Assembly (NCBI GenBank): GCA_964511175.1
Contig: CAZEEI010000001.1
Location: forward strand, 147,187-211,186
DNA: 64,000 bases
From: an uncultured Pseudomonadales bacterium
GTDB taxonomy: Bacteria > Patescibacteriota > Microgenomatia > UBA1400 > UBA1396
Direction: 5' to 3'
A program made the position numbers and the translations under genes. The notes beneath the pieces were generated by a model. It did no database searches and was not told where the DNA came from. It was given only the letters and a program-made list of their open reading frames with translations. Below are positions 5,305 to 33,203 of this stretch, in pieces. The first letter of the stretch is position 1. Every line of letters begins with the position of its first letter.

Positions 5305-5724
5305 ATGGCTTTAGTCCGTTGGAATCCCCTTTTTTCACGCCTGCTGAGCGATTGGCCGGAAGCCTGGGGTGACGAGATGGCACCGCTAACTACTAGTGCC
5401 GGTTCTGGTTTAGAGGTTTATGAAGACGAGACCGAAGTAGTGGTTAAAGCAAACGTAGCGGGTGTTCCTGAGAAGGATATCGACATTACCTTCGAAAAAG
5501 GCATGCTGAAGATTAGTGCGCAAGCTACTAAAGAGGAAGGCGATGAAAAACGTACCCACTACGCGCGTTCTTCTTGGGACTACAACTACACTGTGGCTGT
5601 TCCCGGCATGATTGACCTCAACGCTGAACCCAAAGCTGAAGTGGCTGACGGTGTGGTGACGATTAGTTTTGCCAAATCTAAAGCATCGTTGCCTAAAAAA
5701 GTAACAGTTTCGCGCAAAGCCTAG
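5305..5724 (+). CDS. Hsp20 / alpha-crystallin small heat-shock protein
   Basis: Alpha-crystallin domain pattern; RBS AAAGGAAAC upstream; CIRCE in leader. Confidence 0.8.
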   Translation: MALVRWNPLFSRLLSDWPEAWGDEMAPLTTSAGSGLEVYEDETEVVVKANVAGVPEKDIDITFEKGMLKISAQATKEEGDEKRTHYARSSWDYNYTVAVPGMIDLNAEPKAEVADGVVTISFAKSKASLPKKVTVSRKA

Positions 5725-5786
5725 GTCAGACCTATGCCAGGGTCAGACCCTGCCTAGGGTCTGACCCATGGCGGGGTCTGACCCTT
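5721..5786. repeat. cluster of four GGTC(A/T)GACC palindromic units, 18-bp period
   Basis: ggtcagacc-tatgccagg-gtcagacc-ctgcctagg-gtctgacc-catggcggg-gtctgacc read directly. Confidence 0.75.
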
Positions 5787-5842
5787 TTGACTGGCTATAG
5801 GTTGTAGTGTATAGTCGACGGCAATACCAAAAGGGGAAACCT

Positions 5843-6679
5843 ATGGCGAAGCCTCGAACGGAACTTAGTCCAGGGATGAGGGGGGAAATTGCCCGGCTTT
5901 ACCCTCTCTCAATAGCGGAGGTGCAACGACTTTTGCCAGAGCGCCGTGGTTACCAAGTGGTAGACAAACCTATTCCTTTTGGACCGGAGTTAACCAGTTT
6001 TGTTGGGCAGCATCACATCGATCTAAATGCAATTAAGGACTATAATTTAGCCTTTTTGGGTTTTGATGCAGTGCGGCGAGGTGACAATTTTGTTACCCGT
6101 CCAGGCCGTGAAGTCAGCGGTTTTGAGCCGTACTTTTTGGGCGGAGCAGAAACGGACGGTCGCGAAGTAATTAAGGGGATTGCTCGGCTTGGTAAGGAGC
6201 AAATCACCCTCATTAACAGCGACTTTTTCGGAAAAGTTGCGTGGCAGAAGGCTAAGGCGGTTTTAGATGGTAGCGGGCCAGTGACTACCGAAGCGCTCAA
6301 GACCTTAGACGATTTGTTTGTTAGAGTTCTTAACGCAGGGCGTCGGCGCATACTTAACAACCCCGTCGCTGAACAATTCCGACAGTCTACCGCACGTTTG
6401 GTCCGAGAGGCACCGGGATTCTATTTCTATTTTCCTTCCCAATCTCAATGTTTGCACAATGCCTATTACCAGATAATGCAACGTCCGCCAATACATGGTC
6501 TAAAGATGGCGCGCTTTGAGGGTGATCCGGTTGAATTACTCAGCGATGAGGCGCCTGATTTGCTAGAAGGCTGGAAGCTGATGTCCCGCTTAGGCGTTAT
6601 GGGTCACCCGGCTGTCCGTGTAGCAACCGATTATGGTTTTTTAGGTGCTCGCTATGGCGGGGCGGTGGGAAATAGGTAG
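5843..6679 (+). CDS. hypothetical protein
   Basis: ORF with RBS AAAAGGGGAAAC before ATG at 5843; no recognisable domain. Confidence 0.45.
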   Translation: MAKPRTELSPGMRGEIARLYPLSIAEVQRLLPERRGYQVVDKPIPFGPELTSFVGQHHIDLNAIKDYNLAFLGFDAVRRGDNFVTRPGREVSGFEPYFLGGAETDGREVIKGIARLGKEQITLINSDFFGKVAWQKAKAVLDGSGPVTTEALKTLDDLFVRVLNAGRRRILNNPVAEQFRQSTARLVREAPGFYFYFPSQSQCLHNAYYQIMQRPPIHGLKMARFEGDPVELLSDEAPDLLEGWKLMSRLGVMGHPAVRVATDYGFLGARYGGAVGNR

Positions 6680-9172: not shown

Positions 9173-9553
9173 TTATTTTACAGAACAGCGCAGAGTCTGT
9201 TCTAACTGCGCGCCGGCGGCGTGTACAAAATGATGTTCTACCCAATCCCAGACTGGCTGGAGAACCGGCACCAGAGTTCGACCCAAAGGTGTCAGGTGGT
9301 ATTGCGTGCGCGGCGGAATTTCGGCAAAAATACGCTTCGAGATCAATCCATTTTTGATTAGTCGCTGCAGTAGCGCTGCCACGGTTTTTTCCGCAATCTT
9401 CTCTTCTTGGGAAAGTAAAGTGCAAATTTCACCAAAACGGCGCGGTTGGGTGGCTAAAGCGCCAATAATCCGAATAGTGCGGGGATTGGTGACCAAAAAG
9501 AAAACTTCCCAGTATACTTCCTGCGCTCCAGTACTTACTTTAAAAAATTTTGG
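9173..9553 (-). CDS. HxlR-family winged-helix transcriptional regulator
   Basis: CTLLSQEEKIAEKTV...GLISKRIFAEIPPRTQYHLTPLGRTLVPVLQPVWDW matches HxlR pattern; start taken at MPKFFK. Confidence 0.7.
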   Translation of the reverse strand, partial: PKFFKVSTGAQEVYWEVFFLVTNPRTIRIIGALATQPRRFGEICTLLSQEEKIAEKTVAALLQRLIKNGLISKRIFAEIPPRTQYHLTPLGRTLVPVLQPVWDWVEHHFVHAAGAQLEQTLRCSVK

Positions 9554-9729
9554 CATCGCCAGTAACTTACCATAATTCCCCTTACTTACCAAATGGTAAG
9601 CTACTTTCCGGACAAAAACAAAACAAAGACAACTCTGCTGACTAGTATAGCTTGAGTCGCTATGTCAGAATTTGACTAAGTTATTGATTTAACCAAGGAG
9701 AATTTGATGCCGCCCCATCGATCAAAAAA

Positions 9730-9978: not shown

Positions 9979-10620
9979 CTATGTTTTCTGATTTAAATCT
10001 GCAAACTTTTCTACGCCAGCAGTAGTGGCAATGAGCTCGATGTAACCTTTTACTTTCTCTTGCACTGAGGGCAATCTGTGAGATGGAGCTAGATAATTGT
10101 TGGAATTTCTGTTTGCATACTCACTCAGTAAATCTATAGCCTTTTTAACTAAAGCAGCGGCAGCCAGGTCGTCCTTATCTACGACCACTGACATCGCAAT
10201 TTTTAGAATAGCATCAACCGCCTGACCATGGATTTCCCCCTCATTGCTTTTGTCTAGCAGTTCGAGTCTTCTAGCAACCTGGTCTAACCCAGCCTCTTTT
10301 ACTTTTAAATCATCTTCTCGATCAGCGGCATCAGCGATAACGTCAACTGCCTCTTTTTGCACTGAGGGCAATCTGTGAGATGGAGCTAGATAATTGCTGG
10401 AATTTCTGACAGCATAGTCGCCAATGCTTTGCAGACCAGCTATCTTAACTGCTGCGCTACTATCTGCAGCGGCAACAATCTTTGCTAAGGCTACTAGTGT
10501 TTCTCGGTGGAGAGAACCATCATCTGAAGAATCTATTTTATCAAAGCCCTGAGCTAGAGCTTTTATTGCTTCCAGCTGAACATCAACTAATGCGTCAACT
10601 GGGCGTACTGATTCTGGCAT
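9979..10620 (-). CDS. repeat-containing hypothetical protein
   Basis: Peptide RNSSNYLAPSHRLPSVQ occurs twice; encoded by two 55-bp direct repeats. Confidence 0.45.
   Translation of the reverse strand: MPESVRPVDALVDVQLEAIKALAQGFDKIDSSDDGSLHRETLVALAKIVAAADSSAAVKIAGLQSIGDYAVRNSSNYLAPSHRLPSVQKEAVDVIADAADREDDLKVKEAGLDQVARRLELLDKSNEGEIHGQAVDAILKIAMSVVVDKDDLAAAALVKKAIDLLSEYANRNSNNYLAPSHRLPSVQEKVKGYIELIATTAGVEKFADLNQKT
10066..10415. repeat. two about 55-bp direct repeats (10066-10120 and 10360-10415) inside a CDS
   Basis: ttgcactgagggcaatctgtgagatggagctagataattg(t/c)tggaatttctg present twice, about 295 bp apart. Confidence 0.7.
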
Positions 10621-10667: not shown

Positions 10668-11555
10668 CTATTGAAACGCTGACCACAGCTTACTGACGTC
10701 ATGGGGTCTGACCTCATCGACGAGTTCCGTGGTGGCGCCGGCGCGCGACGGATGGCGGTCCAGAAACGTCGCTTGGTCTTGCCGTTCGTACAGTACACCG
10801 ATCGCGATTTTATTTTCTAAGTCCGCCGCCGTCGCGCGCGCTTGTTCCCAGTTAGTTGGATCGTAATTTTTCATTTGGGCGATATCGTAAACCCGTTCCT
10901 GGTACCACTCATGTGGGGTCGACTTATTGTAGGTGGGACAACTTTGCAAAACCTCAACAAAGCTGAAACCTTTGTGCTGAATGGCTCGTTGGAATACACC
11001 AGTCATATGGTGGATGTCGCCAGAGAAAGTGCGGGCGGCGAATTGAGCGCCCAGCTCCAAAACCAAGCGGATTGGGTTAAGTGGGGTCGCCACTGGACCG
11101 TTAGGGGCCGAGTTCATCGCAACGCCTGGTTTAGTAGTGGGCGAAGCTTGTCCCGTAGTGAGGCCGTAGTTGAGGTTATTATGGAGGACAAAGGTGAAAT
11201 CATAGTCGTGGCGAACCGCCGTAATGAGGTGGTTGATGCCTTCCGCCAGGGTGCCGCCGTCGCCGCCAAAAGCCAGTACCTTGACCCGGCGGTTCGCCAC
11301 CGCCGCCCCGCTGGCCAGCGGCAGGACGCGCCCGTGGAGGCCGTGAATCCGGTAGCCGTCGATCTTATCCGAGTGGTTACCGTGGCAGCCGATGTCGAAG
11401 GCCAGCAAAACCTGGCAAGGATGAAGATTTTCTACTTGCAGGGCGCGCCGCAGGGCGCCGTGGATGCCGTAGTTGCCGCAGTTAGTGCACCAGGTGTGAA
11501 TATTCGGCGACAGATAATCGCCCATTTGTACTGGTTGGTCGCTGTGGCAGCTCAT
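10668..11555 (-). CDS. korB: 2-oxoacid:ferredoxin oxidoreductase beta subunit (TPP-binding)
   Basis: CxxCG..., GDGG...NN.YGLT TPP-binding signature typical of OFOR beta subunits. Confidence 0.85.
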   Translation of the reverse strand: MSCHSDQPVQMGDYLSPNIHTWCTNCGNYGIHGALRRALQVENLHPCQVLLAFDIGCHGNHSDKIDGYRIHGLHGRVLPLASGAAVANRRVKVLAFGGDGGTLAEGINHLITAVRHDYDFTFVLHNNLNYGLTTGQASPTTKPGVAMNSAPNGPVATPLNPIRLVLELGAQFAARTFSGDIHHMTGVFQRAIQHKGFSFVEVLQSCPTYNKSTPHEWYQERVYDIAQMKNYDPTNWEQARATAADLENKIAIGVLYERQDQATFLDRHPSRAGATTELVDEVRPHDVSKLWSAFQ

Positions 11556-13300
11556 GCGGACTCCTTGTTGAAGTGTTCGAGAATATCGTCCACAAAGAAC
11601 GGTCGGCCGTCGAACTTTAGCCAGCGATCGGTAAAGGTAATCCCAGTGTGCTGGGTGATCAGGCCACCCAGTTGGCCGGTGGCGTTGTTTTCCACGATAA
11701 TCAACTTTTGAGCTGACTGCGCAAATTTTTTCAACACCATCGTTTTTAACGGCCAGAGATATTCGTAGTGCAGGTAATTAACGCTGGGACCACCTTGTTC
11801 AGCCAAGGCTTGAATGGCATCCAGCACTGGTCCTTTTACACTTCCCCACCCCACCAGCGACCACTGCGCTTGCTCTGGACCATAAACCACCGGCTCCGGC
11901 AATTCCGCTGCTAAAGCATCAAGTTTGCGCAAACGTTTGGCGTACATCGCCGCGCTGGCTGCGCCATCCTCCGTAATGGAACCGTCGGTGGAATGTTCGT
12001 CGCCGTTGGCGTCATAAGTAGCGTCGGCTTGGCCTGGCAGCCAGCGCGGCGAAACTCCGGAATCGGTGAATGCGTAACGGTCGCTGGGTTTGAGTTGGTC
12101 AAGTTGATTGTCCGGCACGAGTCCCCGTTCGATCGGCAAGTTGTCCGGTATTTTACTCATTTGCCACAATGATTCCGCCACATTCTTTTCGGTCAATAAG
12201 ACGGCCGGCAGTTGGTATTTTTCGGCTAAGTTTAAGGCGTGTTGGACTAAACGGTAACTGGACTCACCATCGCTGGCGGCTAAAACTAGCCTGGCGAACT
12301 CACCGTGACCGCTGTAAATAGCGAGGTTAAGGTCGGCCGCGCTGGTCCAGGTAGGTAAACCAGTAGCCGGTCCGGGCCGCTGAGCCAGGACGCACACCCA
12401 GGGACACTCGATCATGCCTGCCAGGGAAAGCGATTCGGTCATCAGGTCAAAGCCGCCGCCGGAAGTGCCACACAGCGTCCGCGCCCCCATAAACATACTG
12501 CCGATGGTGGTTTGGGCTACACCGATTTCGTCGTCTAACTGCTGAACTAACATTCCTACTTCGCCGGCGACTTCGGCCAAATAAGTGAGGATGGTGCTGG
12601 CGGGTGTCATGGGATAGGAATAGTAGGCGCGGACGCCGGCGGCGGCCGCGCCGAGGGCAGTGAGGTGGTTGCCGCTAATAATCGCATCGTCTTGGGTGTT
12701 TGCCGATCGCGCGAATGGCCAAACCACAGGTGTAACTTGGGTTAGTTTTTGTTCAAAGCCGCGTTGAGCGCAGACGAAGTTGCCCTCTAGTACCTGTGGT
12801 TTGGCCGCAAAGACTTTAGTAAGTACTTGTTTGATCGTGGCTAAGTTTAGTCCCAGCACCTGCCAGAGAGCGCCCATTAGGACGGTGTTGGCCATGATCC
12901 GTTTGCCGCAGACTTCGATCGAAACTTGGAGGGCGTCGACAAACTCCACGGTAATCCGGTTCTCGTCCAGCCATTGTTTTTCGTCCGGTTTTAAATCGAG
13001 ACGCGGAATGTCGTGAAGGATGCGTCCGCCAGGGTTGACGGTTTTCAGGTAGTGGTGCAGGGAAAAACGGCTCAAGCTCAACAGAATGTCGCACCCTCCG
13101 GCGCTGGAATAGATTGGTCGGTCGCTTAAATCAATCTGGTGCGAAGCTTTCCCGCCTTCAATCAACGACGGATATTCACGGTAACTAAAAGTGTAACAAC
13201 CCTCCCGCTTGAAAGCGCGACCCAGCAGCTCGCCCATCGAGGTCAGACCCTGCCCGTTTTCGCCAACCAACTTAATGCTTAAACGATGCTGATCAACCAC
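11552..13300 (-). CDS. korA: 2-oxoacid:ferredoxin oxidoreductase alpha subunit (gamma-alpha fusion)
   Basis: N-terminal gamma-like GENGQG region fused to pyrimidine-binding alpha domain; 4-nt overlap with korB. Confidence 0.85.
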   Translation of the reverse strand: MVDQHRLSIKLVGENGQGLTSMGELLGRAFKREGCYTFSYREYPSLIEGGKASHQIDLSDRPIYSSAGGCDILLSLSRFSLHHYLKTVNPGGRILHDIPRLDLKPDEKQWLDENRITVEFVDALQVSIEVCGKRIMANTVLMGALWQVLGLNLATIKQVLTKVFAAKPQVLEGNFVCAQRGFEQKLTQVTPVVWPFARSANTQDDAIISGNHLTALGAAAAGVRAYYSYPMTPASTILTYLAEVAGEVGMLVQQLDDEIGVAQTTIGSMFMGARTLCGTSGGGFDLMTESLSLAGMIECPWVCVLAQRPGPATGLPTWTSAADLNLAIYSGHGEFARLVLAASDGESSYRLVQHALNLAEKYQLPAVLLTEKNVAESLWQMSKIPDNLPIERGLVPDNQLDQLKPSDRYAFTDSGVSPRWLPGQADATYDANGDEHSTDGSITEDGAASAAMYAKRLRKLDALAAELPEPVVYGPEQAQWSLVGWGSVKGPVLDAIQALAEQGGPSVNYLHYEYLWPLKTMVLKKFAQSAQKLIIVENNATGQLGGLITQHTGITFTDRWLKFDGRPFFVDDILEHFNKESA

Positions 13301-15625: not shown

Positions 15626-15877
15626 ATGACTAAAAGGGACAAAAGAATTCGCAAACTTTTTACCAATCCTAAGACAATTAGTTTTGCCAAACTTGATTCT
15701 ATTCTGGATAACTTAGGATTTGAGTGCCGACAGCCACGATCAGGGAGCAGCCACTACGTCTATACTAAAGGTCAGATCCAAATTACCGTGCCGTATAAAA
15801 AACCGTACGTTAAGGAGATCTACATTAAACGTATAACCGAAATAATTGAGGAGATATATGAGCCAAAAGAATCTTAA
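15626..15877 (+). CDS. hicA: HicA-family mRNA interferase toxin
   Basis: GSSHYVYTKGQIQITVPYKKPYVKEIYIKRI resembles the HicA/YcfA core; immediately followed by hicB. Confidence 0.6.
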   Translation: MTKRDKRIRKLFTNPKTISFAKLDSILDNLGFECRQPRSGSSHYVYTKGQIQITVPYKKPYVKEIYIKRITEIIEEIYEPKES

Positions 15878-16205
15878 ATACTACTTGAATCTTGATTACA
15901 CGGTCCGTCTCAAAGAAAACAGCGACGGGACTTATTTTGCCGAAGTTGAGGAACTACCAGGTTGTTTAACCGAGGGCGATACCAAGATTGAAGCCTTACA
16001 AATGATTGATGATGCTAAACGGGTGTGGCTGGAAGTAGCTTTAGAAAAAGGTTTGAGGATTCCGGAACCAGCCAGCGACGAGTTTAGCGGTAAATTAAAC
16101 GTGCGTTTGCCCAAATATTTACACCGTCGGTTAAGTTACCGCGCTAAACAAGAGGGAGTGAGTCTCAACACGCTGATCAGTACCGGTTTATCGACACTGG
16201 TGTGA
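15858..16205 (+). CDS. hicB: HicB-family antitoxin
   Basis: YTVRLKENSDGTYFAEVEELPGCLTEGDT...GKLNVRLPKYLHRRLSYRAKQEGVSLNTLI is a canonical HicB with RHH tail; RBS GGAG. Confidence 0.8.
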   Translation: MSQKNLKYYLNLDYTVRLKENSDGTYFAEVEELPGCLTEGDTKIEALQMIDDAKRVWLEVALEKGLRIPEPASDEFSGKLNVRLPKYLHRRLSYRAKQEGVSLNTLISTGLSTLV

Positions 16206-16681: not shown

Positions 16682-17073
16682 TTGTTTTTCCGTTGATAGA
16701 AATTACACAACCAATCGGTATTGGCTTCATCCAGTGGGCTTAAATCGAATTTTATTTTTCGGCCAAAATTAATTAGCCGCCAAACACCGTCACGAATGTT
16801 GGTTAAAGTAAACTGCGCCAGCATCTTCTCATTCCAAGGTAGGATTTTGCCGCCCGACTGACCCGCGTCCGCAGTTTTATCCAGTAGTAAATGTTCTTGC
16901 CGCAGACGGCGGATTAAATAGTCTCGATTAGTCTCTGAATTAGCCAGCCAATCGTTAATCATGCCTAGTAGGGTCAGACCCAGACCCCGTTGTTCCTCGG
17001 GATCTTTTTTTCCAGCCAACTCTGCCGCAGTTTTCCTAATAGTTTCCAGCGAAGGTGCGTTTACCATGACCAC
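16678..17073 (-). CDS. paralog family 1 member
   Basis: Family motifs as above. Confidence 0.5.
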   Translation of the reverse strand: MVMVNAPSLETIRKTAAELAGKKDPEEQRGLGLTLLGMINDWLANSETNRDYLIRRLRQEHLLLDKTADAGQSGGKILPWNEKMLAQFTLTNIRDGVWRLINFGRKIKFDLSPLDEANTDWLCNFYQRKNK

Positions 17074-22997: not shown

Positions 22998-24815
22998 CTA
23001 TATTTTCATGGCACTAGCGATACTAGCCGCATCAATCCCTGCCGCTGCCAGGTTTTCGGCCGAAGTACCGCTGTGGGGCAGACCGCGCACGGCTAAGTGG
23101 GTTAGCTTGACCGGTTCGTTGCCCAGAGCCGAACGCACCGCCTCGCCCATGCCGCCGGCCGCGTAGTGGTCTTCGACGACAATTAAGTGTTTGGTGTTGC
23201 GGACGGCTTGGACTAAAGTTGCGGTGTCGATCGGCTGAATACTATATAGGTCGATAACCCGTACGGCTATCCCCTGCTGCGCCAACCGATCCGCTGCCTT
23301 CAAGGCTTCGTGGAGGGTAATGCCTGCCGCCACAATCGTCGCTTGGTCATGGTCACTGTGGCGCAAAGTGTGGCTACCGCCCACTTTGAACTCAGTGTCA
23401 GGAGTGTATAAGACCGGCACCGCTTGACGGGTAGAGCGCAAATAAACCATACCTGGATAGGCGGCGGCTAATTCGACTAATTTCAACATCGAAGGGTAAT
23501 CGCTGGGATAGAGTACAGTGCAGCCAAATAAGGAGCGGAACAGGGCGATGTCCTCCAGACCCATTTGCGATACGCCGTCTGCGCCGATCGCCACGCCCGC
23601 GTGCGAACCGCACAATTTTAGGTTGGCTAGGGAGTAAGCCGCCATGCGGAGCTGGTCGAAGGCGCGCGGCCAGAAGGCGGCCAAGGTACTAAGGAACGGT
23701 ATCTGGCCGCGCGCCGCCAATCCTGCCCCCACTCCCACCATGTTCTGCTCGGCGATAAACATTTCGTAGAAACGGTGTGGGTACTTTTGTTGGAATCGAT
23801 CGCTAAAAGTCGAGTTGCTCAAATCGGCATCCAAAACCAGCAACTCTGGATAGGTGTTGGCTAAACGAACTAAACCGTCGCCGTAGCCTTCGCGCACGGC
23901 GGCCAGCTGGCTGGCGGGTGGAATCACAGGTGGCAAAGTGGCACGTTGCGGCGGGGCAATTAAGGCTGCAGTAATTGGTTGCGCCAGCTGGCCGCGCCAC
24001 GATTGGTCGACCGGTCCCAGTTCGGCCAAAGCGGTCGCCAGCCGTTCCGGCGGCACAACCTTAGCGTGGCGATTTTCCCGATCCTCGAGAACGGCGATTT
24101 CCTTCCCTTTCAGTGTATGGGCAATAATCATTACCGGTTGGTCGGTACTTTGCCGTGCCGTGGCGTAGGCTTGGCTGATGGCGGCTAAATCGTGGCCGTC
24201 GATCACTAGGGCCTGCCAGCCAAAAGCGGTCACCCGCTGCTGGTAAGCCACAACTTGGTGGCCAAACTGAGTGGGGCCAGTTTGTGCCAAGCGGTTGACA
24301 TCGATAATACCGATCAAGTTGCCCAAGCGGTAATGCGCTGCCAGTTGAATTGCCTCCCAAATACTGCCTTCGGCCATCTCCCCGTCGCCGAGCAGGACAA
24401 AGGTGCGGTAATCCAGGTGCTGCCGCTGAACCTGCAGTGCCATGCCTAGTCCTACGGAAAGTCCCTGTCCCAATGAGCCGGTGGCGACTTCCGTCCACGG
24501 GAAGTCCGGCAGCGGGTGGCCCTGGAGTGGGCTGTTGAGCTGACGCAGGGTGGTGAGTTTTTCAGCAGGGAAAGCGCCGGCTGCCGCCCACAGCGCGTAC
24601 AACAGCGGGGCCGCGTGGCCTTTGGAAAAAATCAAGCGATCATTGTTGGGATAATTGCGTTCGTCCAACCGAAAGCGGAAGTGGCCGTCAAAAAACAGGG
24701 AGGCTATCAGGTCGGCGGCCGAAAGACAGGAGGTAGGGTGACCCGAGCCAGCCGCCGTAGTAGCGGTGAGCGACCAGTAGCGCAGCAGGCGAGCCAATTC
24801 GGCAGTGGTGGGCAT
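22998..24815 (-). CDS. tkt: transketolase (fused N- and C-terminal halves)
   Basis: TPP-binding N-terminal region and HSGTS.. pyrimidine-binding half; start set at MPTTAELARLL so the palindromic repeat cluster lies upstream. Confidence 0.8.
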   Translation of the reverse strand: MPTTAELARLLRYWSLTATTAAGSGHPTSCLSAADLIASLFFDGHFRFRLDERNYPNNDRLIFSKGHAAPLLYALWAAAGAFPAEKLTTLRQLNSPLQGHPLPDFPWTEVATGSLGQGLSVGLGMALQVQRQHLDYRTFVLLGDGEMAEGSIWEAIQLAAHYRLGNLIGIIDVNRLAQTGPTQFGHQVVAYQQRVTAFGWQALVIDGHDLAAISQAYATARQSTDQPVMIIAHTLKGKEIAVLEDRENRHAKVVPPERLATALAELGPVDQSWRGQLAQPITAALIAPPQRATLPPVIPPASQLAAVREGYGDGLVRLANTYPELLVLDADLSNSTFSDRFQQKYPHRFYEMFIAEQNMVGVGAGLAARGQIPFLSTLAAFWPRAFDQLRMAAYSLANLKLCGSHAGVAIGADGVSQMGLEDIALFRSLFGCTVLYPSDYPSMLKLVELAAAYPGMVYLRSTRQAVPVLYTPDTEFKVGGSHTLRHSDHDQATIVAAGITLHEALKAADRLAQQGIAVRVIDLYSIQPIDTATLVQAVRNTKHLIVVEDHYAAGGMGEAVRSALGNEPVKLTHLAVRGLPHSGTSAENLAAAGIDAASIASAMKI

Positions 24816-24837
24816 TGGTTCTATTGTACAGGGTCTG

Positions 24838-24883
24838 ACCCCGGCATGGGTCAGACCCTGCCATAGGTCTGACTCGGCCACCA
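24838..24883. repeat. cluster of three GTC(A/T)GAC palindromic units (17-bp period)
   Basis: gggtctgacc-ccggcatg-ggtcagacc-ctgccata-ggtctgac read directly. Confidence 0.7.
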
Positions 24884-27660: not shown

Positions 27661-28543
27661 AAGGTTTGGCTGGTAGTGAAAATAGCAGTGAACCTAGAAT
27701 GCCAGGAATAATGGTGTCAAAAAGAAACAGCAACAAACTTACACTCACCGCCACTTCAGCAGCCACACCAAACGGAGCCAGCAAATAAATCGCGACCCCT
27801 TCCCGAATACCCAGACTGCCAATAGTGATTGGTACCAAATTAGTCAGGAGGACCAGCGGGAAAACCATTAGTACCGTTGCTACAGTTACGGACTGGAAAG
27901 CGTTCAGCAGTAAATAAGCCTGAAGGAAGTAAACCGACATGGTGAGGAAAGAGAGAATCAGGAGAATATTCGACAGCGGCCAAGAAACTAAGGTGAATCC
28001 CCGGAGGATATTTTTAAGCAGTTCAAAAGGAATGAGGTCGGTAAGGGCTTTATTAAGACGGCGGAACTGGTAAAAGAAAAGTAAAATTACAGCCAAGATA
28101 CCGATAATCACGATAGAGTTTGCCTGCGTGAGCAGTCTTTGACCGCCCAGTAAGACAAAGAAAATGACGATCCATAGTTCGGATACTTTATCGACGAAAG
28201 TCAGTGAGCCAAGTTGGAGTTTGTTGCCCTTCATGCCTATTACGCGACCCAGCTCCCCGATTCTAGAGGGGGTGACGAGTCTGGTTCCTCGAAGATAGGA
28301 TTGCATTGCCCCCCAAAAAGTATTGTCTGAATGCAGTTGTTTTGATAATAAATACCATTTGTAACTTTTGATAAGGATATGAATGATGATTAATATCATG
28401 GCTAATAAAACATTTTTTTGTTGAACTGAAAGCAGGGATTGCCAGACGGAATAAGTAGCAACTTTACCAAGAATAAAAATTAACAAGATAATGGTTAACA
28501 ATAATCGGCTGAAAAATAAAAAATTTTTTTCTTTCACATCCAC
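27638..28543 (-). CDS. flippase-like (UPF0104 / LPG-synthase TM-like) membrane protein
   Basis: Multi-TM pattern typical of flippase-like proteins co-encoded with GT2 enzymes. Confidence 0.45.
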   Translation of the reverse strand: MDVKEKNFLFFSRLLLTIILLIFILGKVATYSVWQSLLSVQQKNVLLAMILIIIHILIKSYKWYLLSKQLHSDNTFWGAMQSYLRGTRLVTPSRIGELGRVIGMKGNKLQLGSLTFVDKVSELWIVIFFVLLGGQRLLTQANSIVIIGILAVILLFFYQFRRLNKALTDLIPFELLKNILRGFTLVSWPLSNILLILSFLTMSVYFLQAYLLLNAFQSVTVATVLMVFPLVLLTNLVPITIGSLGIREGVAIYLLAPFGVAAEVAVSVSLLLFLFDTIIPGILGSLLFSLPAKPYVQKNRS

Positions 28544-28560
28544 GCTTCTTTCTTAATTAT

Positions 28561-30162
28561 TCATTTATTGATTTTGTACAGCTTCCAATCCTCAAATGCC
28601 TTCTCTAGAGTTGTAAAATCTGTTCCATTTTCAAATATTCCTGGGAACCTTCTGTTTATAGCATCCAAATCTCCTACTCCACCTAACTTATGTACCAAAA
28701 TATAACCAACCTCATCATTTATGACTGGGTCCAAAAGAACTTCTTCAAAGTTATCATCAATAGTTTCAATGAATATAGATGGTTTTTGCGTATAATACAC
28801 AATAGGAAAACCCATAAAATCGTCAACCAAGATTTTCTTCGGCCATGTATTGTTTTTAATATATTGTGCTATATGCATGTCTTTCTGATAACTCCAATCT
28901 TCAATTTGTGATAAATCACTGTATAAGGTAGCTTTGACTAATTGATTTTCCTCCCTTCCTATTTTTGGATTAGCCATCGCATACAGCGAGCTAACAGACG
29001 AAATAACGATAATTATAACAGCACACAAAAGAGTTATATAAAAATATGTCCTTTTTTTAATATTAGCAATAATATATCCAAGAAATATGTAAGCAGAGGG
29101 TAATACATAAATGAAGAATCTTAACCAACCGAAAGATTGTCCTTTATATAGCAGTATGGCGTGAAATAACAGTACCGACATTGTTGGTAATAGTAAACTT
29201 ATACATAACAAGTGTTCTTTATTTTTTATTCCCTTAATAATCGCAAATATACAAAACACTAAATAAGCGGGAAATAAAAGGATCACTCTTTGTAAGAAAA
29301 ACAAAGATATTTTTCCAAAGTTATATTGCATATTTCTGAAAGTATTATCACTTTCGATAAGTTTTTCTGACTGGGCGGTATTCGAATAAATACTTGTTAA
29401 AAAGTAAAACGGATCACCCATGATTATCCAGTTGGCCAGAATCCAAATTGAAATTATAAAAAACACTGGTGTTAGAAATAAAAGAATCGTTCCTTCGATT
29501 TTTTTAAAACAATTTTTTTGATAATTAAGAAATACAGAGATGCCAATTATCAACATAATTACTGGAATTAATGCTGCTAATTCCCAACGAGTCATTACGG
29601 CTAACGATGTCGAAATACCTAACTTTAATACGTAAGACAGACTTCTTGTGCTTAGGTATGCGACTAAAAAATAAGTTGTAGTTGTAACAAAAAGAACAGC
29701 AATTGCTTCAGACATTCCGTTCGATCCAAAAAATAAAATCATTGGGTTTAAGATAAACATAAAAAGAAATAGTAATCGTAATACAAAGCCGATATTGAAA
29801 TATTTATAGATCTTATTTAGATAGACTGCCGTTAATGCCATGAATATAGCGCTAACAACATTGCCGGCAAACCCAAGATTATTGAGTGGGTTAAACAAAA
29901 CTAGGGGTAGTTGAACAAGTGTAGGAATGGGCGGCCAAACGAAACCTATGGCTGTAAGTTTGGGTTGATTGCCAAAGAATACGCTATATGCATGGAAACT
30001 TCTGGAGAGAGCGTCTCCGTAAACAAACTGTAATTTAAAAACTAGTACGTAGGCAGCAGCGATAAAGACCGTAAATGGCGTCAAAAAAAATAAAATATTC
30101 TCAATATTCTTTTTTATCATGTTGCCAGCTGTGTAATGCAATTTATTTATCCACTTTTGCAT
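28561..30162 (-). CDS. polytopic membrane protein, second GT39-like paralog (AT-rich gene)
   Basis: Multi-TM N-terminal region plus soluble C-terminal domain; markedly lower GC than neighbours. Confidence 0.4.
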   Translation of the reverse strand: MQKWINKLHYTAGNMIKKNIENILFFLTPFTVFIAAAYVLVFKLQFVYGDALSRSFHAYSVFFGNQPKLTAIGFVWPPIPTLVQLPLVLFNPLNNLGFAGNVVSAIFMALTAVYLNKIYKYFNIGFVLRLLFLFMFILNPMILFFGSNGMSEAIAVLFVTTTTYFLVAYLSTRSLSYVLKLGISTSLAVMTRWELAALIPVIMLIIGISVFLNYQKNCFKKIEGTILLFLTPVFFIISIWILANWIIMGDPFYFLTSIYSNTAQSEKLIESDNTFRNMQYNFGKISLFFLQRVILLFPAYLVFCIFAIIKGIKNKEHLLCISLLLPTMSVLLFHAILLYKGQSFGWLRFFIYVLPSAYIFLGYIIANIKKRTYFYITLLCAVIIIVISSVSSLYAMANPKIGREENQLVKATLYSDLSQIEDWSYQKDMHIAQYIKNNTWPKKILVDDFMGFPIVYYTQKPSIFIETIDDNFEEVLLDPVINDEVGYILVHKLGGVGDLDAINRRFPGIFENGTDFTTLEKAFEDWKLYKINK

Positions 30163-32419
30163 TTACTGTAGATAATTCGATCGGATAGGTAGTTAATTCC
30201 TGATCCACCAATTCATTGCCGATCGCCCCACTCGCTTGTTTCACCACCTTAGCGTGACTTAAGTGTAAGCCATGCTTAGTCTTAGACCAATAATGCGGAT
30301 CGCGGATAATCTTATAAACCGCGTGCCACGCTGCCATGCTCATGCCCAGCCAGTAGAAAGGCACTAGGAAAACGTACTTAATAATATCGTCGTACTCCCG
30401 CTTGGCACAACCGATCATGTAGTAGTACATGTAGAGGAAGTTGCCAAACACCAGGGAGAACACCGCCATGTACAAAACCGGCGCGGGGAAGAACGACTCA
30501 ATGAAAACACCAATGATCGGCCGGAGGGCAAAGTAAGAAATAGTGATAATCCACATTACTGGATTGATAAACATGGACATAATCTTGCCGCCGACCACTA
30601 GTTGAAAAGTAATCACGTGCGGCTCCTGCCAATCTCGCATAAAATGTTTGGGATTGCGCATGTGCACGAGGTAAGTTTGGATATAGCCCTTAATCCAGCG
30701 GGTGCGTTGTTGGAACCAGTTGAGCAAATCGCTATTGGCTTCTTCCATGGTCATGGAATTAACTACCGCCGTACGGTAACCATGCTTAACCAGACGCATA
30801 CCTAAATCACAATCTTCCGTGACATTGAAAGCATCCCAGCCCTTGAGCTCGTGCAGATCCTGGGTACGGAAGTGGTTGGAAGTGCCGCCTAGCGGAATCG
30901 GAGCGTGAATGGACTGTAGACCCGTAAGCACTAAGTCAAACCAGAGTGAATATTCGGCAGTGAAGACTCTGGTTAAAATGTTTTGGTGCGGGTTGTAGAA
31001 GTTTAGTTTGGCTTGGATGCAAATGGTACGGTCGTCGGTATTTTTGAACGCCAAAAACGCTTTCTTTAATTGTTGCGGATCAGGTACATCTTCGGCGTCA
31101 TAAACCACGGCATACTCCCCGGTCGCATAATTCAGGCCGTAATTGAGAGCCTTGGGTTTAGTTTTGGGGAAAGAATGCGGGATAACCACTACTTGGAAAT
31201 AACTTGGCAGTCGGTAAGCCTTAGCCCGCTTCACTGTTTCCGCATAGTCCTCTTCTAAAAGGAGAATAACTTGCATTTTTTCCCGAGGGTAATCCAGCCG
31301 GCTCATGGCGGTGACAAACTGCGGTAAGACTTCCCACTCCTTATAGAGGGGGCAAAAAATAGTATAAGTTGGCCATTCTTTTTGAGCCGCGATTTGGGCA
31401 GCAGTAATTTGTACTTCCGGCGACTTGGAAAAACTGCGGAAAATTAGGAAGAAGTTAAATAATAAGTCCACAAAGTACAAGACCGTTAAGATAGCAATAA
31501 GGATTGTGATGGTGGCGTGCCAATTACTCATGGCGTTAAATACGAGTAAAGCCAGCAGTAGGACAAAGAAAACGATCTGCGGCCCAGAAAACCGGTGGAA
31601 AGCGCTTTCGCTCTGGCCGAGGGCGGTATGTGGGATGAACTCTTTTCCCCGGTAGTGGAAACCAACCCCTTTTATTTTTTGGGTTTTAGGCAGAAAAGGC
31701 ACAATTTCCGGACTAATGAAGGCCAGCTTGAGGGCGGCCAAGCCCATTTCCAGTGAGGCAGTGACTAAACCGATTTTTGGTGCGCCAGCATGACGTTTTT
31801 GGAAAATGATATTAACCGTTTTAATTTGGTAACCGGCATTTCTGGCCTTGACCAGAAACTCCAAATCAAAAGTCCACTGCAAAGGGTGCAGTTTAATTCG
31901 CTCGACAATCTCTTTGCGGAAAACTTTTAGGCCGGATTGGACGTCACAGTTAAAGCCGTGGAGGAACCGACCGAACAGGTGGCGGAAAGCGTGGCTGAGG
32001 ATTTTGCGCCGTAAGCTTACTTGATGTTCTCGCCGGTTGGCAACGACGATGTCACTGTCAGGGCCAATTTTGGCGATCAAATCGGGAAGGGCGTCGGGCG
32101 GATACTGCAAGTCGGCATCAATCATACCAATTAGTGGGTACTTAGCGTGGGCGAATCCCTCCAGCAGTGATTGAGCTTTGCCGCGTTGGCCTTTTTTGGT
32201 GTAAATAGAAAGAGGATAAGATTTTTTTAATTTTTCCACGATCTTAGGAGTCTGGTCAGTGGAATGGTCATCGATAACGATGATTTCGTAGGTGATTTTT
32301 TGGGTCTGTAGTGCCTGATCGATTTTTTTGATCAAGAGCTGAATGTTGTCTTCTTCGTTCCAAGTAGGAACGACTATTGAGATTTTATTCATATTCGATA
32401 AATAGAAGTTATGGGGCAA
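30143..32419 (-). CDS. bifunctional family-2 glycosyltransferase (DPM-synthase-like GT2 fused to processive CesA-like GT2)
   Basis: N-terminal IVVPTWNEEDNI...VIDDHSTDQT; second domain with DAED (DxD) and QQRTRW (QxxRW) motifs and TM helices. Confidence 0.7.
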   Translation of the reverse strand: MPHNFYLSNMNKISIVVPTWNEEDNIQLLIKKIDQALQTQKITYEIIVIDDHSTDQTPKIVEKLKKSYPLSIYTKKGQRGKAQSLLEGFAHAKYPLIGMIDADLQYPPDALPDLIAKIGPDSDIVVANRREHQVSLRRKILSHAFRHLFGRFLHGFNCDVQSGLKVFRKEIVERIKLHPLQWTFDLEFLVKARNAGYQIKTVNIIFQKRHAGAPKIGLVTASLEMGLAALKLAFISPEIVPFLPKTQKIKGVGFHYRGKEFIPHTALGQSESAFHRFSGPQIVFFVLLLALLVFNAMSNWHATITILIAILTVLYFVDLLFNFFLIFRSFSKSPEVQITAAQIAAQKEWPTYTIFCPLYKEWEVLPQFVTAMSRLDYPREKMQVILLLEEDYAETVKRAKAYRLPSYFQVVVIPHSFPKTKPKALNYGLNYATGEYAVVYDAEDVPDPQQLKKAFLAFKNTDDRTICIQAKLNFYNPHQNILTRVFTAEYSLWFDLVLTGLQSIHAPIPLGGTSNHFRTQDLHELKGWDAFNVTEDCDLGMRLVKHGYRTAVVNSMTMEEANSDLLNWFQQRTRWIKGYIQTYLVHMRNPKHFMRDWQEPHVITFQLVVGGKIMSMFINPVMWIITISYFALRPIIGVFIESFFPAPVLYMAVFSLVFGNFLYMYYYMIGCAKREYDDIIKYVFLVPFYWLGMSMAAWHAVYKIIRDPHYWSKTKHGLHLSHAKVVKQASGAIGNELVDQELTTYPIELSTVNAKVDK

Positions 32420-32546: not shown

Positions 32547-32645
32547 CCCCCGCTCTGGGGTCAGACCTCTGCCCGGGTCAGACCTCTGCCCGGGTCAGAC
32601 CTCTGCCCGGGTCAGACCCGGGCCTAGGTCTGACCTATGGCAGGG
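32547..32645. repeat. four perfect 18-bp tandem units GGTCAGACCTCTGCCCGG followed by two inverted GGTCTGACC units
   Basis: Read directly; lies in the divergent promoter region between the GT2 gene and dcd. Confidence 0.8.
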
Positions 32646-32672
32646 TCTGACCCCTACCGCTATACTATTCTC

Positions 32673-33203
32673 ATGATCCTGTCCGACCGCGATATTTTGG
32701 CGGCTCTAACCACCGGCGACCTAGTCATTACCTCCTTCCGGCCGGAGCGGCTCAAACCCGGCAGCTACGGCCTCACTCTGGGTAATCAGGTTTGGCGCCC
32801 TAAAGACCAAGGTGTAATCGACGCCCGCCGGCCGCAAGTGGCCTATGACGAAATTGAGATTTTTCCGGATACCGGCTACGTGCTCAACCCCGGCGATTTT
32901 ATTTTGGCGCAAGCGCAGGAAAGTCTCAGCCTCAGCCGTAACTTGGCGGCAGTTAGCGACACCCGCTCCACCCTCGCCCGCCTAGGTTTGCAGGTAATTC
33001 TCTCTTCCTCTTTTATCGAACCAGGCCAGAAGGAAAGTCACGAAACCATGGAGATCGTCAACCACGGTCCGCAGCCCGTCCAGATTTTCCCGGGTATGCC
33101 GGTCATGAAAGTAATTTTCCACCAACTAAAAACGCCTGCCAGTTTTGATTACGCCGCAATCGGTTCCTACGGCCGGCAGAATAAACCTTACCCGCGGTGG
33201 TGA
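32673..33203 (+). CDS. dcd: dCTP deaminase
   Basis: MILSDRDILAAL...PGSYGLTLG...VLNPGDFILAQ matches the dCTP deaminase/dUTPase family; start at MILSDRDI downstream of the repeat cluster. Confidence 0.8.
   Translation: MILSDRDILAALTTGDLVITSFRPERLKPGSYGLTLGNQVWRPKDQGVIDARRPQVAYDEIEIFPDTGYVLNPGDFILAQAQESLSLSRNLAAVSDTRSTLARLGLQVILSSSFIEPGQKESHETMEIVNHGPQPVQIFPGMPVMKVIFHQLKTPASFDYAAIGSYGRQNKPYPRW

Follow-up and report, generated by a model that had tools for sequence, protein, structure and literature searches.

The 64,000-nucleotide stretch of contig CAZEEI010000001.1 (GenBank assembly GCA_964511175.1) analyzed here, referred to as the window, belongs to a bacterium of the candidate phyla radiation (CPR) and carries three clusters of a short palindrome with the core sequence GGTCWGACC. 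These clusters are most likely arrays of repetitive extragenic palindromes (REPs), organized in the manner of bacterial interspersed mosaic elements (BIMEs) and spread by an IS200-like REP-associated tyrosine transposase (RAYT), and not operators of a transcriptional regulator. Within the window the core was found 15 times as an exact match compared with 0.25 matches expected in 64 kb, and none of 100 shuffled sequences reached this number; with one mismatch allowed, 29 matches were found compared with 8.0 expected. The three clusters described in an initial annotation of this DNA are therefore real and far above chance. Twelve exact units and one unit with a single mismatch make up the three extragenic arrays, and three further exact copies occur singly.

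The period of the repeat is 17 bp at all three sites according to Tandem Repeats Finder, and not 18 bp as first annotated. Each period consists of a 13-nt near-perfect palindrome, (R)GGGTC[A/T]GACCC(Y), and a 4-nt linker. The 15-mer CAGGGTCWGACCCTG that had been put forward as the unit occurs exactly only once, at 5738, and the other units differ from it by 1–3 bases. The centre base, either A or T, marks the orientation of a unit, and the arrays display the patterns AATT (site 1), TAT (site 2), and AAAATT (site 3). Units are found both head-to-tail and inverted, and a whole array is able to fold as one long hairpin. BIMEs are REPs that are regularly spaced and alternate in orientation (PMC2817692), and all three window arrays combine the regular 17-bp spacing with alternating orientation. 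A single unit (CAGGGTCAGACCCTG; 13–15 nt, below the classical REP range) has a predicted DNA folding energy of −4.4 kcal/mol (z = −2.8). When the window units are oriented with A at the centre, they are followed on the 3′ side by (C/T)CTGCC; read on the T-centred strand, this is GGCAG on the 5′ side. Oriented in the same manner, units in other loci show T(A/T)GG or GTAG at the 5′ flank more often than its complement at the 3′ flank. Since the flanks differ by side, the unit is asymmetric, like REPs.

The first array (5721–5786) contains four units that start at 5724, 5741, 5758, and 5775 with the centre bases A, A, T, and T. Overall it forms an imperfect hairpin (RNA fold −52.6 kcal/mol, z = −7.3; DNA fold −28.7 kcal/mol, z = −7.5), its first unit overlaps the hsp20 stop codon (TAG, 5722–5724), and TTTTG follows directly after it. 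A sigma-70-like promoter (TTGACT-17-TATAGT, 5787–5815, plus strand), which belongs to the surroundings of the repeat and not to the repeat itself, begins 3 nt after the array, and the downstream gene is an open reading frame (ORF) at 5807–6679 with a probable ATG at 5843. The second array (24829–24877) contains three units, at 24832 (T), 24849 (A), and 24866 (T, one mismatch), and lies between a 434-aa ORF and a transketolase-like gene (tkt), both on the minus strand. The last approximately eight codons and the stop codon of the 434-aa ORF (ending WWPSQTYGRV; 24851–24877) are array sequence, and the array ends at TACAAT, 7 nt ahead of the tkt start codon (ATG at 24815); its minus-strand RNA fold has an energy of −31.9 kcal/mol (z = −3.5). 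The third array (32556–32655) is located between a divergent family 2 glycosyltransferase (GT2) gene (start at 32419, minus strand) and dcd (true start ATG at 32673) and contains four direct units (32559, 32576, 32593, and 32610; A-centred) and two inverted units (32627 and 32644; T-centred). The initial description of this site as four perfect tandem units plus two inverted ones is correct for the six units and the two inversions, whereas the perfect identity extends over 3.6 copies of the 17-mer GGGTCAGACCTCTGCCC (32558–32618, 100% identity), again with a period of 17 and not 18. Its RNA fold is the most stable of the three (−86.5 kcal/mol, z = −9.7). The DNA folds of the arrays are similar in form to the RNA folds, and the suggestion that the arrays can form long hairpins agrees with these very stable predictions (RNA z-scores between −3.5 and −9.7).

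A promoter-like pair of hexamers for dcd, ATGGCA (32637)-18-TATACT (32666), has unit 6 of the third array within its spacer. The term promoter-proximal therefore holds only loosely: site 1 adjoins and site 3 overlaps promoter-like hexamers, and a promoter scan called no consensus promoter at site 2. In the public dcd entry (P0001, 188 aa) the start codon chosen is an ATG that lies within the third array, whereas the dcd proteins of relatives are 176 aa long and start with MILS, which corresponds to 32673. Exact-protein look-ups of hsp20 and of the 176-aa dcd returned no match, with the 188-aa dcd present in the database instead, and we infer that the array creates a spurious N-terminal extension in the database entry. 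A contig from a short-read assembly of the same organism (Logan SRR8925769, 1147 bp) breaks inside this array.

The same phased motif was found in many other genomes. When 185,579 species genomes were scanned for pairs of units at a 17-bp distance, and metagenomes for three phased units, at least 120 loci were returned in each case. The genome of the window was not among the genome matches listed, which span many phyla, including Ca. Woesebacteria (CAGGGTCTGACCCTGGCCAGGGTCAGACCCTGG), Ca. Taylorbacteria, a Bathyarchaeia metagenome-assembled genome (MAG), a Treponema MAG, and many Betaproteobacteria, and they are mostly proteobacterial inverted pairs (Duganella, Rugamonas, Parapusillimonas, and Ferrovum). 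The label lineage-specific, used in the initial annotation, can be kept for the expansion within the lineage of the window, whereas the repeat type itself occurs in many phyla. In more than 100 metagenome loci the typical patterns are AAT or ATT, which are overall palindromes of 47 bp whose linkers complement one another, and AATT, a 64-bp hairpin that has the architecture of site 1. No three-unit arrays were found on viral contigs, which gives no sign of a phage origin.

Arrays of at least two units avoid coding sequence. In other loci with a GC content below 0.58, 28% of such arrays lie inside crude ORFs compared with 82% of random segments, and 30 arrays have convergent genes on their two sides, 36 have co-directional ones, and 14 have divergent ones. 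Single units in the same set of loci are inside ORFs at the chance rate (78% compared with 82%). Three contigs (L176, L152, and L032) are largely made of such units: L176 (2950 bp) packs 70 GGGTCTGACCTCTAC-type units, spaced 15–21 bp apart, into 2.9 kb, L032 from the Treponema MAG carries 10 units of GGGGTCAGACCTC, and the unit GGTCWGACCTCT of these unit-rich contigs is the unit of window site 3. Some near-identical arrays with the same flanks, on related metagenome contigs, differ only in the centre bases of their units (AAT in L198 and TAA in L166/L217; AAT in L148 and ATT in L143), a difference that could reflect either free flipping of the base or inversion of the unit in place.

All 1,815 ORFs from the 240 motif loci were clustered all-against-all, and the clusters were ranked by the number of loci that they cover. 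One family is encoded directly between motif arrays, in six loci (L072, L126, L144, L153, L138, and L080) and in a seventh (L132) found by tblastn. The family matches Pfam Y1_Tnp (PF01797) with E-values of 1e-5 to 1e-10, and its best NCBIfam model is the REP-associated tyrosine transposase (REP_Tyr_transpos) at 37–76 bits, below the curated equivalog cut-off of 80 bits. The HUH motif (NHFH) and the catalytic tyrosine (RYIHLNP) are invariant in 36 sequences. A search of the Protein Data Bank (PDB) with the sequence profile gave no match and only the fold comparison succeeded: every one of the top 30 PDB structures that Foldseek matched to an AlphaFold2 (AF2) model is a Y1 HUH transposase, the E. 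coli RAYT–REP complex 4er8 among them. The array-associated family is an IS200-like Y1/HUH transposase. The motifs MPNHFH, LFQ, RYIHLNP, and YSSY in two alignments (A1 and A2) and lengths of 212–251 aa make it similar to TnpA-Y1 subclass 2.1, an assignment based on signatures and length; the subclass is defined by the signatures NH[YF]H, FQ, Y[IV]HLNP, and a proximal SS at a length of about 238 aa (Quentin 2018, PMC6006769, Table 1).

The association was also found in the reverse direction, starting from the protein alone. A profile search returned 7,704 homologues; those with names belong to Patescibacteria, Microgenomates, Levybacteria, and Cloacimonetes. The abundance of the family in CPR bacteria counts in favour of a RAYT origin of the window repeats, since the host is itself a CPR bacterium. 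Most contigs that carry a homologue are only 1–2 kb long, as expected if the repeats break assemblies, and the repeats probably fragment CPR assemblies. Five homologues were chosen irrespective of the motif; besides genomes of Patescibacteria, Microgenomates, and Levybacteria, the sources were another NCBI assembly and a Logan contig. Their loci contain six transposase genes, or seven with a second Y1_Tnp gene in L243 (16617–17294) that is flanked by a different hairpin, and all of them are flanked by hairpin units of 11–13 nt. The units are paired in the 17-bp phase, except for the single units of L248. Their cores are GGTTWAACC in L243, GAGGTCCAACCTC in L245, AAGGTCSGACCTT in L248, GGGGTWACCCC in L249, and GGGTTSAACCC and GGGGCTCCCC in L251, so that the repeat core changes with lineage, together with the transposase. 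Overall, flanking units were seen at seven loci selected by motif and at six genes selected by protein.

In three CPR genomes (L243, L245/L246, and L248; gene at 10001 to approximately 10680) the transposase gene occupies the same slot between pilD and pilin/pilC/pilT/pilB, with rpmF-nusB-rnc-rpsP upstream and holB-gyrB downstream. This shared slot fits the vertical, single-copy behaviour of RAYTs (PMC5581495). The doublet upstream of the CPR-type genes has the linker TGAC, by which CTTGACAGG arises; this is a −35 hexamer, and the spacer of the promoter holds a repeat unit. In eight loci (L072, L144, L153, L243, L245, L248, L249, and L251) the transposase promoter appears to be made from the repeat, in the order unit-cTTGACAg-unit followed by a −10 hexamer 20–35 nt before the ATG. 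This layout suggests that the transposase might regulate its own expression through binding of its own repeat. The region ahead of dcd in the window (32637–32666) mimics the layout: its linker supplies ATGGCA, and unit 6 falls within the spacer.

Repeat units are also present in frame within the transposase genes themselves (L144, 1374–2051; L243, 10001–10687; L248, 10001–10651; also L153 and L126). They are found at two recurrent places, around nucleotides 160–190 and 450–480, as 30-nt doublets (13 + 4 + 13, or 10 codons) in L144 and L243 and as single units in L248. The intragenic units co-vary with the flanking unit: GGTCAGACC is accompanied by PDQVRPAWRSDL and PGQVRPATRSDL, GGTTAAACC/GGTTTAACC by PGEVKPGTRFNL, and GGTCSGACC by units encoding KVRP and RSDL. 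The second intragenic site corresponds to a low-confidence loop (residues 142–177) of the AF2 model. A tentative extension of these observations, possible but rather doubtful at present, is that subclass 2.1/Group 1 RAYTs, so far described as without REPs or with terminal inverted repeats only, drive minimal REPs (a 13-nt hairpin with a 4-nt linker, strictly in 17-nt phase) across many phyla and that in CPR bacteria, where the gene would be vertically fixed in the pilus locus with a repeat-built promoter and co-varying in-frame doublets, the two have entered a long-term and possibly domesticated partnership.

The junctions that carry the arrays in the window were compared with those of relatives. 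No array was found upstream of dcd or tkt in three relatives (L242, L252, and L253; dcd 65–69% identical) and none in a fourth (L254; acetyl-CoA synthetase 69% identical), and phased palindromic 9-mers of any sequence were absent from about 38 kb of relatives' DNA. The arrays are therefore lineage-specific additions and not conserved regulatory sites. The initial suggestion of a REP-like family is thus supported by the flanking of RAYT genes by the same phased palindromes, the low share of arrays in ORFs, the BIME-like alternation, and the absence from relatives.

According to the mechanism that we propose, the window units would derive, as non-autonomous copies, from short hairpins on either side of a gene that lies elsewhere in the genome and encodes a single-copy IS200-like Y1/HUH transposase (RAYT/TIRYT, subclass-2.1-like). 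In single-stranded DNA, for example on the lagging-strand template, a unit would fold into a small hairpin, the transposase would bind the hairpin and cut and rejoin at the adjacent linker, and new copies would land beside or inside older ones. Slippage could then grow or shrink the arrays, with the identical 17-mers of site 3 (3.6 copies) as a possible example. Effects on neighbouring genes would be by-products: the stem-loop directly after hsp20 may act as a terminator or 3′ stabiliser, the linker and unit that cover the −35 and the spacer in the promoter of dcd may affect this gene, and the second array would supply the last residues and the stop of the 434-aa ORF. The anatomy of the repeat, its non-random occurrence, its folding energy, the physical association of the repeat type with RAYT genes of other genomes, and the lack of arrays at the corresponding junctions of relatives are observed. 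Because the cognate gene does not lie within the window, the presence of such a transposase in this genome, the movement of the copies by it, and any effect on expression are matters that we can only infer.

Several observations weigh against this explanation. No Y1 transposase gene was detected in the 64-kb window (best tblastn E-value 0.15), the copy number of the unit is a count within this window only, and the link to the exact GGTCWGACC core comes from metagenomic loci of other organisms, whereas the loci picked by protein have cores that are related but not identical to it. The relatives are distant (about 65–69% protein identity), so that the absence of arrays at their junctions indicates non-conservation or turnover and not recent insertion. 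On the side of the protein, the NCBIfam scores stay under their cut-off and the AF2 model is of moderate quality (mean predicted local distance difference test score 65; core 70–89). The unit is 13 nt long compared with 20–40 nt for classical REPs, although families with 5-bp stems have been noted (Di Nocera et al.). No canonical 5′ GTAG tag can be made out in the window copies, where GCAG, YAG, or CTGCC is present instead. The lack of GTAG weakens a strict membership of the GTAG superfamily but not a REP-like mechanism.

The initial annotation also considered the arrays as sites that a dimeric regulator binds cooperatively. In this explanation a winged-helix protein of the GntR/FadR type or similar would recognize GGTC-N-GACC and co-regulate the downstream neighbour of hsp20, tkt, dcd, and the GT2 gene. 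The motif does fit the GntR/FadR shape GGT-N3-ACC, identical 9-mers can be read in LldR and PdhR papers, the arrays adjoin promoter-like hexamers, and the window encodes an HxlR-type winged helix-turn-helix protein (9173–9592); in the subset of window ORFs covered by the scans, none encodes a GntR protein. However, the sites are missing upstream of dcd and tkt in the relatives, even though the dcd of the relatives keeps the −10 hexamer TATACT, and the genes beside the arrays share no functional theme. A phase of 17 bp corresponds to 1.6 helical turns and would place successive dimers on different faces of the helix. Furthermore, the site 3 copies are identical including their linkers, which indicates recent duplication and not selection on binding sites, and the repeat type flanks transposase genes and is extragenic in many phyla. 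Co-regulation by a cooperative regulator is therefore very unlikely.

An origin of the arrays as locally evolved RNA or DNA structures (intrinsic terminators, attenuators, or mRNA 3′ stabilisers) that were not made by a transposase is improbable as well. The predicted stem-loops are very stable at each site (−52.6, −31.9, and −86.5 kcal/mol), the first array begins at the end of hsp20, on its stop codon, and UUUU comes after it, and convergent gene ends are over-represented among array sites elsewhere, but the largest array lies between divergent gene starts, where a terminator is needless, and a terminator scan called none of the three arrays because their T-runs are too short. An independent origin of the same 13-mer at three loci and beside transposase genes elsewhere is unlikely, and a structural role fits better as something that the repeats may have come to serve secondarily than as a competing account of how they arose. 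The position of the RAYT gene between pilD and pilin/pilC/pilT/pilB in three CPR genomes raises a further explanation, in which the repeats are self-recognition tags for the type IV pilus/DNA-uptake machinery, similar to DNA uptake sequences or uptake signal sequences. Neisseria uptake sequences also occur as inverted pairs behind genes. Yet the synteny alone could be historical, the connection between pilus and repeats would have to be read from gene order, and the core changes between lineages along with the transposase, as it does in REPs; of all explanations weighed here, uptake tags are the one to which we give the least credence, and we regard them as extremely unlikely.

Other known types of element were considered and rejected. 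CRISPR arrays have repeats of 24–48 nt and unique spacers of similar length, compared with units of 13 nt and linkers of only 4 nt here, which agrees with their dismissal in the initial annotation. A cyanobacterial origin and repeats of the HIP1 type were rejected, as GCGATCGC was found once compared with 0.8 occurrences expected. A known RNA family or tRNA-linked element does not fit, given that the window contains no tRNAs and no Rfam match at gathering thresholds. A role of the unit as −35 element does not fit the spacing to the −10 hexamers, and only the linker of site 3 gives a weak −35.

The three single copies of the core in the window all lie inside ORFs, as had been noted, at positions slightly different from the 10688, 13243, and 16968 given initially. 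The copy GGTCTGACC at 10705–10713 is located at the 3′ end of an ORF similar to the beta subunit of 2-oxoacid:ferredoxin oxidoreductase and is probably not a copy of the element. The copy GGTCAGACC at 13241–13249 lies in an ORF for a POR-type alpha/gamma subunit and encodes GQGLT. Beyond the 9-nt core it matches the extended unit over 14 nt (GGTCAGACCCTGCC; 13238–13254), and the encoded GQGLT is part of a conserved glycine-rich stretch. Its membership of the element is doubtful: the match may have arisen by chance, or the site may have served as a source or a sink of the motif. The third copy, also GGTCAGACC, is found at 16972–16980 in overlapping ORFs that have no Pfam match.

The remaining gene content of the window is mixed. 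Pfam-annotated genes encode SOD, Fpg, Hsp20, a Ddl-like ligase, a C39 peptidase, HxlR, HicB, 2-oxoacid:ferredoxin oxidoreductase, flavodoxin, an ADP-forming acetyl-CoA synthetase, the transketolase-like protein, GT2 glycosyltransferases, dCTP deaminase, and an NYN protein, and many small ORFs belong to no family. All named homologues of the acetyl-CoA synthetase are from Patescibacteria (Woesebacteria, Magasanikbacteria, Beckwithbacteria, and "Patescibacteria group"). Two ORFs of 625 and 839 aa that were considered as gyrB and gyrA beside a pilus/RAYT locus encode a WD40/beta-propeller protein and a P-type ATPase. The GC content is 0.40 at 28001–32000 compared with about 0.49 elsewhere in the window; this block consists of minus-strand genes for a two-domain GT2, ORFs of 533 and 502 aa without a Pfam match, and an LPG_synthase_TM protein, and it may be an acquired cell-envelope glycosylation island with the third array at its edge. 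The HicB antitoxin gene (15846–16205) is preceded by a small overlapping ORF (15626–15877), a possible HicA.

In practical terms, the arrays should be masked or labelled REP-like, since they already distort gene calls, both at the start of dcd and at the C-terminus and stop of the 434-aa ORF. To our knowledge, REP–RAYT systems have been studied almost only in Proteobacteria, and a minimal and strictly phased version in small CPR genomes would widen their known range. In the literature searched, no link of REPs or RAYTs with CPR bacteria was found. A link to a transposase subclass reported to be without REPs would further add to this, and the partnership of transposase and repeat, if true, would exist in genomes thought too streamlined for such elements. 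A 17-nt unit would also offer a very small substrate for the biochemistry of Y1 transposases. No new kind of mechanism is opened by these results, and what is mildly new is the CPR host, the minimal size of the unit, and the subclass of the transposase.

Comparison with known systems places the repeats closest to two related groups. With the REP/BIME–RAYT systems and REPINs of Enterobacteria and Pseudomonas they share short GC-rich extragenic palindromes in regular alternating arrays, the flanking of a single-copy IS200-like Y1/HUH transposase, the co-variation of the repeat with the transposase lineage, and a fixed syntenic gene position in several genomes that suggests vertical inheritance (PMC2817692, PMC3116915, and PMC5581495). 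They differ in having a 13-nt unit with a loop of 1–3 nt in place of 20–40 nt, a fixed 4-nt linker and strict 17-nt phase where REPIN spacers are tens of nucleotides long, no clear GTAG in the window copies, a CPR host, and a transposase that is 2.1-like and not of subclass 2.2 (E. coli) or 2.5 (Pseudomonas). The GntR/FadR-type operators (LldR, PdhR, and FadR boxes) resemble them in the GGT-N3-ACC palindrome, and the same 9-mers are found in the operator papers, but those are single or paired sites conserved before orthologues, with no 17-bp-phased arrays, duplicated linkers, or flanking of a transposase, and relatives would be expected to have them. The subterminal hairpins of IS200/IS605 elements (IS608 and ISDra2) are served by a protein of the same fold, and the protein would work in the same manner, by recognition of a small hairpin on single-stranded DNA and adjacent cutting at a short guide or target sequence, whereas the repeats described here are bare dispersed hairpins with no transposase between them and the gene is apparently single-copy and syntenic and not multi-copy.

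The second group consists of the TIRtrons, whose TIRYT transposases correspond to RAYT Group 1 (Bertels 2017) and TnpA-Y1 subclass 2.1 and share the signatures and the length of about 220–240 aa. TIRYT genes are flanked by inverted repeats (terminal inverted repeats, TIRs) that share GGGGWSAS, and some of the families are self-complementary and clustered (Di Nocera et al. 2013, PMC3733652), as the present units are, which also form dimers or clusters. The consensus GGGGWSAS fits GGGGTCAG of the mid- and high-GC loci, whereas the units of the window and of low-GC CPR genomes (GGGTCAGA, AGGTCAGA, GGGGTTAC, and AGGTCCAA) fit it only partly, and the run of G is shorter in the copies of the window (GGGTC or AGGTC). 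No REP-like sequences were reported near subclass 2.1 genes (Quentin et al. 2018, PMC6006769), whereas every CPR-type gene examined here has hairpin units on both sides. Arrays of up to six units, as in the window, or of tens of units, as in some metagenome loci, have not been described for TIRtrons. Overall, the repeat family is of a known kind, that of the REP/BIME–RAYT systems and TIRtrons.

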